Part shown: piece after piece, positions 54,339 through 63,400 of the stretch
Layout of the letters: the number at the start of each line of letters is the position of its first letter
How positions within the stretch are numbered: position 1 is the stretch's first letter
Assembly: GCF_988242995.1 (NCBI RefSeq)
Contig: NZ_OZ547043.1
DNA length: 64,000 bases
Reading direction: 5' to 3' (one strand)
The notes under the pieces: model-generated
What the model saw: the letters and a program-made list of their open reading frames with translations, nothing else
Told to the model about the DNA's origin: nothing
Database searches by the model: none
Translations under genes and position numbers: made by a program

Positions 54339-54415
54339 CGGCACGTAGCGCAGCCTGGTAGCGCACCGTCATGGGGTGTCGGGGGTCGGAGGTTCAAATC
54401 CTCTCGTGCCGACCA
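54339..54415 (+). tRNA. proL: tRNA-Pro
   Basis: 77-nt sequence CGGCACGTAGCGCAGCCTGGTAGCGCACCGTCATGGGGTGTCGGGGGTCGGAGGTTCAAATCCTCTCGTGCCGACCA folds as a canonical cloverleaf with T-loop GGTTCAAATCC; lies just after yejM as in K-12. Confidence 0.9.
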
Positions 54416-54444
54416 AATCGACCATAGTTAATCATCGTTTTTAT

Positions 54445-54485
54445 GAAAAAAACCCGCTAATTCATTGAATAGCGGGTTTTTTTAT
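54445..54485 (+). terminator. rho-independent terminator downstream of proL (within island-side sequence)
   Basis: hairpin CCCGCTA-ATTCATTGAA-TAGCGGG followed by TTTTTTT. Confidence 0.6.
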
Positions 54486-54537
54486 TGTTTTTAGTCATCG
54501 TTATTCGACGGTAACAGTGGTTTTCAGCCGTTTTTTT

Positions 54538-54589
54538 TAGTTATATGTTTAGTTATACGGTCTGGCGGGTAGCTAAAACCGTATAACTA
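54538..54589. repeat. TAGTTATA(C/T) repeats (two direct, one inverted) in the att-proximal arm
   Basis: TAGTTATAT 54538-54546, TAGTTATAC 54550-54558, inverted GTATAACTA 54581-54589; a further TAGTTATAC copy at 63265-63273 near the other island end; candidate integrase arm-type sites. Confidence 0.5.
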
Positions 54590-54621
54590 AAATCTGTTTT
54601 TTCCCGTGGATTCAAAAACGT

Positions 54622-55866
54622 ATGGCAAGAAAGGCGACCCCACTCACCAACACACAGATCAAAGCAGCTAAACCAGCGGAAAAAGAATACACCTTACAGG
54701 ATGGCGGCGGACTTTTTCTCCTCATTAAGCCGTCTGGTTCGAAACTATGGCGATTCAACTACTATCGACCATCGGACAAAAAACGAACAATCATTAGTTT
54801 GGGATCGCTCGATGAAGTATCCCTGGCTGATGCCAGAAAACGCCGTAGCGAGTACAGGACGTTAATTGCGTCAGGGATTGACCCACAGCATCACGAGCGG
54901 CAAAAACGCGAAGCAGAGGCTCGACGACAGGGCAACACGTTCGAAAATGTGGCCGCATCGTGGTACGAAATGAAAAAAAACCAGAATCTCGCCCACAATA
55001 CGATCAAGGACATCTGGCGCTCGCTAGAGAAATATGTATTCCCGTATATCGGAAACACACCGATAGATACTCTCACCGCTCGCCGCTTTGTTGAGATACT
55101 CACGCCCATCAAGACACGTGGCAACCTGGAAACACTGAAACGCGTTTTACAGCGCATCAATGAAGTGATGGATTTTGCTGCCAACAGTGGACTGATTGAC
55201 ATCAACACCGCTGCGAACGTCCGCAAGGCATTCCCTTCCCCCACCAAAAAACACATGCCAACCATCCGACCAGAACAACTACCGCAGCTAATGCACGATT
55301 TATCGATCGCCAGCATAGAACGGCAAACCAGATTGCTGATTGAGTGGCAGTTGTTAACCGCAACCCGTCCAGCCGAAGCCTCCGCCGCACGGTGGGAAGA
55401 AATCAACCTTGATGCGGCAACATGGACGATACCAGCCGGACGCATGAAGATGCGCCGTGATCATGTGATCCCTCTTTGCGCTCAGGCGATGGCAGTGCTT
55501 GAAGCCATGAAGCCGATTAGCGCACGAAGGGAGCATGTTTTCCCAAGTCTTAAAAATCCAGTGCAACCAATGAGCAGCCAGACAGCAAACGCAGCATTAC
55601 GGCGAATGGGTTACACTGGTGTGCTGGTATCTCACGGGCTACGCGCCATATTCAGCACAGCGGCGAACGAAGAAGGATTTGAGCCGGACGTAATCGAGGC
55701 CGCACTCGCACACGTGGACACGAACGAAGTTAGACGGGCATACAACCGAAGCAACTACCTGGAAAAACGTAAAGTGTTAATGTGCTGGTGGGGTGATTTT
55801 GTGGAAGCAGCCTCAACCGGAACAACCATCGCCAGCGGGCACAGGGGATTACGCGGAATAAAATAA
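54622..55866 (+). CDS. int: P4-type tyrosine integrase
   Basis: 414-aa ORF with the N-terminal TDTxIRxAKP-like / GGGLxLxVKPxGSKxWRFxY motif typical of P4-family integrases; adjacent to tRNA in the same orientation. Confidence 0.9.
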   Translation: MARKATPLTNTQIKAAKPAEKEYTLQDGGGLFLLIKPSGSKLWRFNYYRPSDKKRTIISLGSLDEVSLADARKRRSEYRTLIASGIDPQHHERQKREAEARRQGNTFENVAASWYEMKKNQNLAHNTIKDIWRSLEKYVFPYIGNTPIDTLTARRFVEILTPIKTRGNLETLKRVLQRINEVMDFAANSGLIDINTAANVRKAFPSPTKKHMPTIRPEQLPQLMHDLSIASIERQTRLLIEWQLLTATRPAEASAARWEEINLDAATWTIPAGRMKMRRDHVIPLCAQAMAVLEAMKPISARREHVFPSLKNPVQPMSSQTANAALRRMGYTGVLVSHGLRAIFSTAANEEGFEPDVIEAALAHVDTNEVRRAYNRSNYLEKRKVLMCWWGDFVEAASTGTTIASGHRGLRGIK

Positions 55867-55882
55867 AATATTTAAAAAATTA

Positions 55883-55919
55883 TTGGTTCCTAATTGGTTC
55901 CTAATTGGTACCAATTAGG
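55883..55919. promoter_or_regulatory. tandem TTGGTTCCTAA repeats plus 20-bp perfect palindrome CCTAATTGGTACCAATTAGG
   Basis: two direct 11-bp repeats (55883-55893, 55894-55904) run into a perfect palindrome (55900-55919) inside the AT-rich int-alpA intergenic region; candidate operator. Confidence 0.45.
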
Positions 55920-56129
55920 AGCCAATTTGTGTCTCTTTACTGTCTCATTTTGAGAAATATTTAAAATTCTTTTTATGTTAGAAAATTAAAAAATAATCAA
56001 TCACACAACTCTTATTAAATAATTCTTGACTTGCTTTTTTATAGATTTGTATTCTTTTTATATGCTTTCATATGGTTACCGTCACTTTCATTCAAAAAGT
56101 GATATTTTGCTGTCTTTAGGAGAAATAAG

Positions 56130-61297: not shown

Positions 61298-61353
61298 TGG
61301 CAGTTCTGCATTATTTTTTGTGTTATTGAGTTGTAGAGCGTTTCAGGAGTTTT

Positions 61354-61563
61354 TTGAATCACATGAACGTTTCGCTGGTGGATATTCTTGACAAGTTGCA
61401 GCCAGGCCGACGCGTGCCAGCTCGCCGCAGTGCCTGGCATCTTCCGTACTTCGTCTTTCTCGAACGGCGCGGAAACGATTTGATTGCGTTGAATCCCGTC
61501 ACAGAGGATAGCGTTACGCTATCTCCTGAGAGTCTACTAGCCACAGACTGGGAGTACTGCTAA
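61354..61563 (+). CDS. hypothetical protein
   Basis: 69-aa ORF with no recognisable motif. Confidence 0.35.
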   Translation: MNHMNVSLVDILDKLQPGRRVPARRSAWHLPYFVFLERRGNDLIALNPVTEDSVTLSPESLLATDWEYC

Positions 61564-62096
61564 ACACAAACGCATCGAGGGTGCTGGCGTGTTGCCAGCC
61601 CCACCCCCTCCGAAATGATCCCCCAAAAAGTACAAAATGATCCTCCATTAACGAACAGAAAACAAACAAACAAAGAGCAACAAATAAGCATTATTTACAA
61701 TTCTTGACAAAAACACCCCCTATTTATAACCCTACCAAATTTAAAATTACATCTACAAAACAATAAGTTACAAAATCAGCAACGGATCATTTCGAAAAAA
61801 ACGGTTAGTCCCTTTTTCGAAAAGGGATCATTTTGTTGCTTAAACTCATATGCGGATTACATATCAATACGCTAGTGATAGCCGTTCTGGAATGCCACAG
61901 AAACGCGCTGTAATCGATTCTGGCGCAATTAGCTGTGCTAGGTAATGATTTACCTATCTGGGGATGTTGCGCACGTCTGGATTGCGTTACCACCGAAGAT
62001 TGTGCGCGTATGGTGGCTGTTACGGTCGCCTCCCGACAACGCAAAATTGCGGCGGCACAGTCGGTTTACCGCGCTAACACGGCTTGATTCACTCGC

Positions 62097-62225
62097 TCGA
62101 CTTGTCCCACCTCCCCCCCAACTTGTCCCAAAACAGCCTAGACTTGTCCCACCTTACCCAATTTATTTCTAACAAAATCAATTTGTTAGGTATCAATGGG
62201 ACAGGTGGGACAGGTGGGACGGGTG
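62097..62225. repeat. iteron cluster 2: three direct ACTTGTCCC repeats and three tandem inverted GGGAC(A/G)GGT repeats
   Basis: ACTTGTCCC at 62099-62107, 62120-62128, 62141-62149 (21-bp spacing); GGGACAGG 62198-62205, GGGACAGG 62206-62213, GGGACGGG 62214-62221; same motif as cluster 1, ~2.3 kb away. Confidence 0.7.
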
Positions 62226-62525
62226 GTTTTGTATATATATACGAAAAATTGCATTCGGAGGGGGAGCAGAATACCTACACCCCATTGCTTATGGGAGCGC
62301 CAGCCTCGTCAAATTTTTACACCCGCGAAATAAAAAATACTTTTCGCTGGTGGGCATGATGCTGATATGGGGATCTCTATAACGACCAGCCCCATTTGGA
62401 ACTATGCAAATCAGCACAGAAAGGGGATGCCTGATACAATACCCTCGATGGGATAAAATGTTCATCTGTCGAAAGTCTATCCGCATTCACAAAAACGCGG
62501 CCTGTAATGATGTAAGCCACCTGTA

Positions 62526-63122
62526 ATGGTGGCCTGTTTGGGAGAAATAGCAGTGGTTTGTGGCGCGATCGCAGCAGACGGCATAAGTCCGCTAATGAAA
62601 GCCTACATCAAGTCAAGCGAGGATATGGTAGTCGGATATATCGGCGAAGGTTCCTCTGCCGAATTAATGTCTGTTTGGCAGCCGTCACTTGAAAATGTGG
62701 CAATAGGTGGAATTTTTGGCAAGCTGGCGGATACGGCGCAGTTGATTACCGGACACACAACCAAAAGCCGCCTCAACGCTACCCTTGTGTGGGAAGGGCA
62801 GCAGCCGCCGGAATTTACCCTTGTCCTAGATTTTTTAGCGATGTCCAACGCAAAAACGGAAGTGAATGATGCCATTACGACGTTGCTGAAAATGGCATCG
62901 CCAGAACTAAACGACATTACGCCTTTTGGTCGAGTCCCGGAAGCCGTAACGATCAATATCGGCAGAAACGTGATGTTAACGAACGTTGTGATCAAAAGTG
63001 TGAGCTATCAGCTTGATGCCCCTCGCACACCGGAAGGCTATTTCACTCACAACACGGTAACACTTCTATGCAGTGGGAACACTTCTCTCAACCGCAGCAA
63101 TATATCATCTGTTTTTGTTTAG
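62526..63122 (+). CDS. hypothetical protein; island terminal cargo ORF
   Basis: 198-aa ORF (alternative start at ATG 62625 with GAGGA SD would give 165 aa); no recognisable motif; last gene before attR. Confidence 0.5.
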   Translation: MVACLGEIAVVCGAIAADGISPLMKAYIKSSEDMVVGYIGEGSSAELMSVWQPSLENVAIGGIFGKLADTAQLITGHTTKSRLNATLVWEGQQPPEFTLVLDFLAMSNAKTEVNDAITTLLKMASPELNDITPFGRVPEAVTINIGRNVMLTNVVIKSVSYQLDAPRTPEGYFTHNTVTLLCSGNTSLNRSNISSVFV

Positions 63123-63347
63123 GAGCCGCCGCCCAGCACAAGCGCGAGTGATGCATTATTTGGCGGGGCTTGTCGCGCACCTAGTCACCAGTTCTACAAC
63201 GGATAGCCGGAAAACGGCGAAATCTGTACATTCTTTAGCTGTTCGTTTTTGCAGCAAATTATTTTAGTTATACGTTTGGTTACACGATTTCAAAGCACAA
63301 TCAGACAAACCATTTAAAATCAATTTGTTAAACGCTTAATTAAACTA

Positions 63348-63366
63348 CTCTCGTGGACCAAAAATC
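63348..63366 (+). repeat. putative attR: degenerate direct repeat of proL 3' end
   Basis: CTCTCGTGGACCAAAAATC versus tRNA 3' end CTCTCGTGCCGACCAAATCG (2-nt indel plus mismatches); flanked by a TAGTTATAC arm-type site. Confidence 0.4.
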
Positions 63367-63370
63367 CCAA

Positions 63371-63400
63371 AAAAAACCAACCTTTACGGTTGGTTTTTTT
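63371..63400. terminator. bidirectional rho-independent terminator
   Basis: AAAAAAAACCAACCTTTACGGTTGGTTTTTTT: hairpin flanked by A-run and T-run; 3' of the minus-strand autotransporter. Confidence 0.65.

Follow-up and report, generated by a model that had tools for sequence, protein, structure and literature searches.

An 8.95-kb island at the tRNA-Pro gene proL of Escherichia coli with the organisation of a Gram-negative phage-inducible chromosomal island and a phiP27-type cos-like site

Analysis of a 64,000-nucleotide stretch of contig NZ_OZ547043.1 (assembly GCF_988242995.1; hereafter the window) delimited an island of 8,951 bp (8.95 kb) between the tRNA-Pro(GGG) gene proL and yejO, which is considered here as a probable phage satellite of the Gram-negative phage-inducible chromosomal island (PICI) type (Table 1). 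The island is flanked by imperfect direct copies of the tRNA 3' end, and its limits were set by aligning both ends against the yejM-proL-yejO junction of Escherichia coli K-12, which represents the empty site. To the left, the chromosome was colinear with K-12 as far as the tRNA 3' end; to the right of attR, the K-12 sequence returned exactly, with the proL terminator followed by the 3' end of yejO. The original prediction of an island of about 9 kb at proL was thereby borne out, including its P4-type integrase gene on the same strand within 210 bp of the tRNA (the open reading frame (ORF) starts 206 bp downstream and reads into the island) and the return of core sequence after a degenerate copy of the tRNA 3' end. 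The predicted content of int, alpA, Icd-like, SSB, FinO and PerC genes agreed with profile scans and with the RefSeq annotation of a 99.9–100% identical island copy in strain LH13-b, which was used to confirm the gene list.

Table 1. Features of the proL island (positions in the window).
Feature	Position	Strand	Evidence and remarks
proL, tRNA-Pro(GGG)	54339..54415	+	ARAGORN and Rfam tRNA; integration target, intact at attL
attL core CTCTCGTGCCGACCAA	54400..54416	+	tRNA 3' end; three-way alignment with K-12 empty site
Putative integrase arm sites TTAGTTATAYG, left end	54537..54590		Two direct, one inverted
P4-type tyrosine integrase	54622..55866	+	414 amino acids (aa), intact; Arm-DNA-bind_3 and Phage_integrase (Pfam)
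AlpA/Vis-family helix-turn-helix regulator-excisionase	56130..56321	+	63 aa; PHROG 66, E 2e-7; PF05930, weak
isrK/seqA-like RNA element	56725..56801	+	Rfam RF01394, 47 bits, just under gathering score of 50
C4-type antisense (immunity) RNA	56826..56913	+	Rfam RF01695, 76 bits vs. gathering score of 45
Icd-like ORF	56967..57155	+	NCBIfam NF033153, E 2e-17
61-aa ORF	57148..57333	+	phrog_3672; annotated in relatives
DUF4222 protein	57363..57650	+	PHROG, Pfam and RefSeq annotation; stop overlaps rep gene start
DUF927 replication initiator-helicase	57647..59782	+	711 aa, intact; SaPI Rep/SCCmec Cch type
ori-like iteron cluster	59807..59943		Two inverted and four direct GGGACAAGT copies around AT-rich spacer
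Single-stranded DNA-binding protein (SSB)	60019..60444	+	TIGR00621; PHROG 44
ProQ/FinO-domain RNA chaperone gene	60480..61016	+	Interrupted here by TGG to TAG at 60648-60650
PerC-family regulator	61013..61297	+	PHROG 994, E 1e-35; PF06069
Small ORF	61354-61563		69 aa, TTG start; weak phrog_7206 match, E 2e-6; unannotated by PGAP
Small ORF	61935-62087		50 aa; annotated hypothetical; no family match
Second iteron cluster	62100..62226		3x ACTTGTCCC, spacer, 3x GGGACRGGT; just upstream of cos
cos-like site	62257..62338	+	Copy (~80-100 bp) of HNH-terS intergenic region of phiP27-type phages
Variable slot	62370..63200	+	~830-bp insert in place of ~75 bp in ~50 other complete-genome copies
PmgG-like ORF	62526..63122	+	Baseplate-tail-tube junction homologue
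Arm-type repeats, right end	63264..63286	+	
attR core CTCTCGTG--GACCAA	63351..63364	+	tRNA 3' fragment, 2-bp deletion vs. attL; K-12 alignment

At least 80% of the island was present in 52 of the 5,426 complete E. coli genomes. Carriers thus made up about 1% of genomes and came from many hosts and countries, with the insertion always exactly at the att site. Most of the sampled rows among the remaining genomes contained the contiguous yejM-proL-yejO junction; with such empty sites in these genomes and in K-12, the 9 kb is not a segment present at this locus throughout E. coli. Some genomes contained a different island at the same proL tRNA, with an integrase approximately 81% identical. The small deletion in the tRNA fragment at attR differed from relative to relative (GTG--GACCAA here; another in each of LH10-b-1, 042 and NIST0056), a pattern suggestive of integration on several independent occasions, each time damaging the displaced tRNA end; a damaged tRNA fragment at attR has been reported as typical of PICIs (PMC10111431). 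Insertion sequence (IS) elements were present in some island copies, and in two assemblies in which the island bears the pmgG-like gene described below (GCA_036174885.1 and GCA_020783085.1), yejO was gone and narP directly followed the island, indicating a deletion beside attR. No published name was found for the island. The E. coli 042 element tested previously was labelled '1749' (PMC6092414), a tag that differs from those of the proL island genes EC042_RS12975-RS13015 and was not mapped to them.

The integrase (NCBIfam PRK09692, E 1e-167; PHROG 1) was 35% identical to P4 Int (E 3e-77; tblastn with P4 proteins) and the AlpA-like protein 41% identical to P4 Vis (E 1e-7). In the window, TTAGTTATAYG occurs in four exact copies, all of them just inside the island ends, which is the layout expected of integrase arm sites, as annotated in P4. 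A palindrome with a 16-bp stem, which could be a terminator or an operator, is formed at 55888-55927, between the int stop and the promoter region of alpA, by two direct and two inverted copies of AATTGGTWCC.

Downstream of alpA, the C4-type RNA folded into the expected two-hairpin structure (−41.1 kcal/mol, z −4.5). Nine nucleotides of its loop, CCTTTTGCG (56870-56878), were complementary to the Shine-Dalgarno region of the Icd-like ORF, CGCAAAAGG (56948-56956). The loop sequence CCUUUUGCG can pair by complementarity with CGCAAAAGG at the icd ribosome-binding site (RBS) as well as with GCAAAAGG upstream (56766-56773), the first target site, which is held by the isrK/seqA-like element upstream of the C4 RNA. 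The C4 RNA sits within a frame that the Prokaryotic Genome Annotation Pipeline (PGAP) labels 'ash family pseudogene' (56548-56928). Since this Ash-like frame and the Icd-like ORF matched consecutive parts of one profile (phrog_29966), the 'pseudogene' is probably the usual frame hosting the RNA. The same arrangement of RNA and target is found in c4-icd of P1 and CI-seqA of P4, and arrangements of this type have been reported for Gram-negative PICIs (PMC10111431). The recognition loop was unlike that of P1, and cross-immunity with P1 C4 was rejected on this ground.

The largest protein of the replication region had been described in the original prediction as a primase-like P-loop protein. A replication function with a Walker A motif (SSAGKTT) agreed with this description, but the protein is better described as a DUF927 helicase (PF06048, E 4e-46; PHROG 1139, E 1e-166) of the type found in staphylococcal pathogenicity islands (SaPI Rep) and the staphylococcal cassette chromosome mec (SCCmec Cch). 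Based on its matches to PDB 8tch (a staphylococcal 'Pathogenicity island protein', E 8e-15) and 5dgk (SCCmec Cch helicase, E 0.004), it was assigned as a SaPI-Rep-type initiator helicase and not as a recognisable primase; no primase catalytic domain was recognised among the Pfam, PHROG and PDB-sequence matches. The first iteron cluster begins 25 bp downstream of the rep stop. The iterons were likewise as predicted: the eight exact copies of GGGACAAGT in the window all fell within the island, in two clusters (59807-59943 and 62100-62150). The second cluster, 2.3 kb further on, has the same inverted layout as the first and ends 30 bp before the cos module; it is limited to this island lineage, being absent from other cos-bearing islands, and recalls the ori/crr arrangement of P4.

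A 1.2-kb 'non-coding' stretch of the island was searched by blastn against 50,697 phage records, and the single feature matched was the annotated cos-site of phiP27 (91% over 46 nucleotides, E 3e-8). In phiP27 and in one E. coli prophage, this sequence separates an HNH endonuclease gene from a P27-family terS, with terL, portal and HK97-type protease genes downstream of terS. In a five-way alignment of three islands and two phages, approximately 100 nucleotides were conserved. The cosN equivalent (62298-62307) read CGCCAGCCTC in the island vs. CGCCCGCCCC in phiP27, identical at 8 of 10 positions, and the 30 nucleotides downstream of it were nearly identical to the phage. At the position of the phage terS start codon, the islands keep CATG followed by only an eight-codon mini-ORF (62353-62379), so the copied phage region ends exactly at the terS start.

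The same cos module was found towards the right end of islands that differ in other respects and belong to at least three further lineages at different chromosomal sites, namely cspD-clpS (F11 and MS 200-1; ~320-330 bp upstream of clpS), beside dinD (PU-1) and beside the pao/yagU region (TUM9757). Its presence in several island lineages suggests a shared packaging strategy. Some of these other islands carried a prohead protease/capsid fusion gene or other cargo. On E. coli plasmids, the module occurred at no place, though D6-like plasmids were part of that collection. Two other kinds of packaging site were considered and rejected: a search for P1-type pac hexamers (TGATCA/G) returned isolated sites only, with no cluster in the island, and P2/P4 cos gave no match in the island with up to three mismatches allowed.

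Just past cos, the match to about 50 other complete-genome copies stops at 62369 and the conserved right arm follows about 75 bp on; those copies are elements of approximately 8.2 kb without cargo in the slot. The pmgG-bearing insert was found in only two complete genomes. In the assembly collection, the exact PmgG-like protein was on record in 38 blocks; 24 contigs carrying it were read, and the ten places inspected in detail were all in the proL island. The original prediction had named one terminal cargo ORF and no capsid, tail or terminase genes. The ORF is indeed variable cargo, being absent from the other copies, and the scans yielded no capsid or terminase gene, but the terminal ORF proved to be a homologue of the tail/baseplate protein PmgG (PHROG 1114, E 9e-60; PDB 9ay5 chain G, 'PmgG', E 4e-41), so the statement that tail genes are absent was incorrect. 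Pfam gave no match for this ORF, and its identity derives from PHROGs, tblastn and PDB sequences. Candidate starts are ATG at 62526, TTG at 62538 (chosen by PGAP) and GTG at 62553. PmgG is a hexameric, T4 gp48-like baseplate-tail-tube junction protein that is essential for P1 tail formation (PMC9024508; bioRxiv 10.1101/2025.07.21.665459).

The PmgG-like protein was 72% identical to PmgG of D6 and 41% identical to that of P1, with tblastn matches confined to P1-like phages; its nearest relatives (82% amino acid identity) were encoded on D6-like phage-plasmids of about 90 kb, and pmgG occurred at 103 plasmid places in the E. coli plasmid collection. The island ORF aligned with PmgG of P1, P7 and D6 over nearly the full length and shared the conserved core (PMC9024508; PDB 9ay5). 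Whereas pmgG lies between gene 21 and bplB in P1 and D6, the island gene is single, located between cos and attR on a chromosome-integrated satellite and outside any contractile-tail gene cluster. It was mosaic: the flanks had 93-98% nucleotide identity to the D6-like plasmid gene, and a central patch of 45 residues (codons ~43-90) was only 40-60% identical and had a deletion of seven codons. This diverged patch coincided with the sole long low-confidence segment (residues 41-88) of an AlphaFold model with a mean predicted local distance difference test score (pLDDT) of 68. The ratio of nonsynonymous to synonymous substitution rates (dN/dS) was 0.25 overall and 0.08 in the C-terminal half. In sigma-70 and terminator scans, promoter-like sites were not above chance level, and no promoter is therefore claimed for the gene. 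Because cos is absent from the plasmids and the island proteins are unlike the phiP27 late proteins, the cos site and the tail gene come from two different phage families. One sub-lineage acquired the PmgG-like gene recently as cargo from a D6-like phage-plasmid, and the satellite cycle can do without it, given that most family members lack it.

Taken together, these features most likely identify the island as a cos-packaged satellite of the Gram-negative PICI type, another member of an already known kind. It fits the four-zone model of Gram-negative PICIs (Integration - Bro/immunity RNA - Replication - Late/cos; PMC10111431) and the feature list of PMC6092414, with a specific att site and inward integrase, AlpA near int, and a replicase followed by an iteron origin. 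As a packaging determinant it carries the phiP27-type cos-like site, recognised by sequence only. Its 8,951 bp fall within the usual size of about 8-15 kb, and PHROG scans showed no lysis, capsid or terminase genes. PerC and AlpA are common PICI genes (PMC6092414, PMC11773190). The satellite nature claimed in the original prediction was strengthened by the cos site copied from phiP27-like phages. Of the two kinds of satellite it had proposed, the Gram-negative PICI agreed with the organisation found here, and the P4-like satellite failed on core genes and cos type. A capsid-forming PICI (cfPICI) was also rejected, as no capsid, portal, head-tail connector or terminase (terL) genes were present in any scan. 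In the SatelliteFinder model for PICIs, 'tail' is a forbidden component (PMC10085698); the PmgG-like tail gene is present in this copy and absent from the ~50 other copies.

Among known elements, EcCICFT073 and other Gram-negative PICIs share with the island a length of about 9 kb, a left-end inward integrase followed by AlpA (PMC6092414, PMC10111431), a Bro/Ash-Icd zone with C4/isrK-type RNA, a replicase followed by an iteron ori and SSB, a PerC-like gene, a cos site near the right end, no terS, and the damaged tRNA fragment at attR. The island differs from them in that its cos is of the phiP27 type (HNH-dependent, HK97-like) and not lambda-like, in that the sequence downstream of cosN is near-identical to the phage with no recognised Rpp-like protein, and in its proL site, its DUF927 helicase as replicase and its lack of a capsid-morphogenesis gene. 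SaPIbov5-type cos SaPIs resemble it in carrying the helper's own cos and relying on the helper's TerS, TerL and HNH (PMC5052747; cited in PMC6739421), and have a Rep helicase of the same DUF927/SaPI-Rep family; unlike them, the island is Gram-negative, has AlpA and an antisense RNA instead of an Stl repressor, and has no Ccm capsid-size protein. With P4 the island has in common a related integrase, a Vis/AlpA homologue, RNA-based immunity encoded inside a Bro/Ash-type frame, two iteron regions, a cos site and a cargo slot adjoining cos, whereas the sid-delta-psu operon, epsilon and the alpha primase-helicase are missing.

We consider it probable that the island is a phage satellite of the Gram-negative PICI type at proL that is packaged by a phiP27-type helper. 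In such a cycle, the P4-type integrase would join the attP core (CTCTCGTG..GACCA) to the 3' end of tRNA-Pro(GGG), aided by the TTAGTTATAYG arm sites. By analogy with P1 C4 and P4 CI, the loop of the C4/CI-type RNA would then pair with the icd-like RBS and the isrK/seqA-like site, keeping the 61-aa ORF, DUF4222 and rep off. As in EcCICFT073, a helper phage may turn on AlpA and thereby excision and island transcription. The DUF927 helicase would bind the GGGACAAGT iterons and replicate the circle together with the island SSB to give concatemers. Given a phiP27-type cos, which in the phages goes with an HK97-like head, HNH, P27-family TerS and TerL, the helper terminase and HNH would cut these concatemers at cos and fill helper capsids, probably with multimers (4-5-mers): four island copies amount to 35.8 kb and five to 44.8 kb, compared to 42.6 kb for the phiP27 genome, and multimer packaging has been discussed for EcCICFT073 (PMC6092414). 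The PerC-like and FinO-like regulators would be family-wide accessory genes and the PmgG-like gene a cargo of the sub-lineage.

Several observations weigh against this interpretation. The cosN equivalent departs from phiP27 at two of ten bases, and the island proteins showed no similarity to the phiP27 late region (record 21000-42575; HNH, terminase, head and tail). LH13-b contained no second copy of the cos module, and thus no resident phiP27-type helper. In the LH10-b-1 copy, otherwise 98% identical, the DUF927 rep is annotated as a pseudogene with an internal stop, and in the copy studied here a nonsense codon relative to LH13-b splits the FinO gene into two ORFs, a basic N-terminal one of 56 aa and one of 119 aa with the FinO domain. 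PHROG, NCBIfam and Pfam scans of the island revealed no terS or capsid-morphogenesis gene, and no Rpp-like redirecting protein (rpp) was recognised in it. Without the two former, the island has three of the five SatelliteFinder core components and falls into Type C, a class termed uncertain, of which more than 6,000 elements were left unanalysed by the authors (PMC10085698).

Some of these observations would also be expected of an element of PICI ancestry that is now immobile, a decaying or domesticated remnant inherited vertically at proL. The FinO nonsense codon, the rep stop in LH10-b-1, the IS insertions in some copies, the lack of a helper cos in LH13-b and an attR core 2 bp shorter than attL all agree with decay. 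However, this copy has intact int, alpA, rep and ssb genes, its two iteron clusters, cos and arm sites are intact as well, and an 8-bp identical block (CTCTCGTG) is still there for crossover; the presence in about 1% of genomes from many hosts and countries, exact att insertion and variable attR scars speak for movement as well. Immobility is consequently regarded as unlikely, although it is the likeliest of the alternatives. A satellite of P1/D6-like phage-plasmids, with the PmgG-like gene and the C4-icd cassette as adaptations to that helper, would account for a homologue 72-82% identical to D6-type PmgG and for the joint presence of C4 RNA and icd, hallmark genes of the P1 immI region. It is very unlikely in view of the ~50 other complete-genome copies that lack the pmgG-like gene, the absence of a P1 pac hexamer cluster from the island and of the cos module from E. 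coli plasmids, and the recognition loop that differs from P1; C4/CI RNAs are, moreover, normal in P4 and PICIs too (PMC10111431).

Movement by conjugative plasmids instead of phages, that is, as an integrative mobilisable element, was judged highly improbable: FinO-domain proteins and SSB are also known on conjugative plasmids, but PHROG, NCBIfam and Pfam scans detected neither a relaxase nor a coupling-protein family, a phage cos is present and the gene order is that of PICIs. We attach the least credence to a P4-like satellite dependent on a P2-type helper. The similarities of Int and AlpA to P4 Int and Vis, the CI/C4-type immunity RNA and the two separated iteron clusters, which recall P4 ori and crr, could suggest such a relationship. 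Of all P4 proteins, however, tblastn matched only Int and Vis: Sid, Delta and Psu had no match in the island at E<1, Alpha primase-helicase and Epsilon produced chance-level fragments only (E 0.5-0.7), and PHROG scans were without Psu and Sid families. A P4-like satellite thus fails on five of seven core genes, as well as on cos, of which no P2/P4 version was found at ≤3 mismatches.

With regard to the cargo, the original prediction had referred to anti-phage functions carried by such elements, which was not confirmed here, as PADLOC matched no known anti-phage system for any of nine island proteins. Our best guess is that the PmgG-like product is either a neutral passenger or a factor that disturbs the assembly of tails in P1/D6-like phages. 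Captures of late genes have been described for PICIs (PMC10111431), and the Tai systems provide a precedent for satellite cargo that interferes with tail assembly (PMC11364771). The likeness to these is by role, as satellite cargo that could act on phage tail assembly, and not by sequence: Tai genes occupy a cos-adjacent hotspot in P4-like elements, not in PICIs (PMC11364771), and Tai proteins are not homologues of structural proteins. A more specific, and doubtful, possibility is that the PmgG-like protein is a weaponised decoy that would be built into the PmgG hexamer and so disrupt the start of tail-tube formation in invading D6/P1-like phages. A rider of phiP27-type cos phages would, on that model, have captured the tail-tube-initiator gene of a competing phage-plasmid family, keeping the assembly core nearly as it was and replacing a central loop that lacks structure in the monomer model. 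If true, a dominant-negative homologue would block tail assembly by a mechanism distinct from that of Tai systems.

As interpreted here, the island is a well-delimited, minimal (8.2-9 kb) addition to the satellites of the Gram-negative PICI type, of a kind that lands in the 'uncertain' bin of current detection tools because it has no terS or capsid genes. The phiP27-type cos copy, the C4 antisense RNA and the PmgG identity of the terminal ORF had all been absent from the original prediction. The cos module leads to a concrete helper prediction, namely phiP27-type HNH-dependent cos phages, including the Shiga-toxin phage phiP27; if confirmed, small islands of this kind would be vehicles of high-frequency gene transfer by this phage group. 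The only unusual feature is a tail-tube-initiator homologue that stands alone, is maintained by selection and was taken from an unrelated phage-plasmid family; it is a candidate for a new form of phage interference.

Among the remaining features, NCBIfam returned only noise for the small ORFs and the terminal ORF. The FinO-domain ORF is still open (60657-61016), and the same split ProQ/FinO gene was present in assembly GCA_013851005.1. At 61614-61835, an AT-rich stretch of about 130 bp with a TTGACA-N17-TTATAA-like promoter pointing to cos is flanked by GATC-containing motifs, two ATGATCC and two inverted GGATCAT, a layout that recalls a regulated late promoter or, superficially, pac-type repeats. 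Outside the island, Rfam recognised a ribosomal protein L25 leader upstream of rplY (50598-50623), an ordinary core-genome feature.

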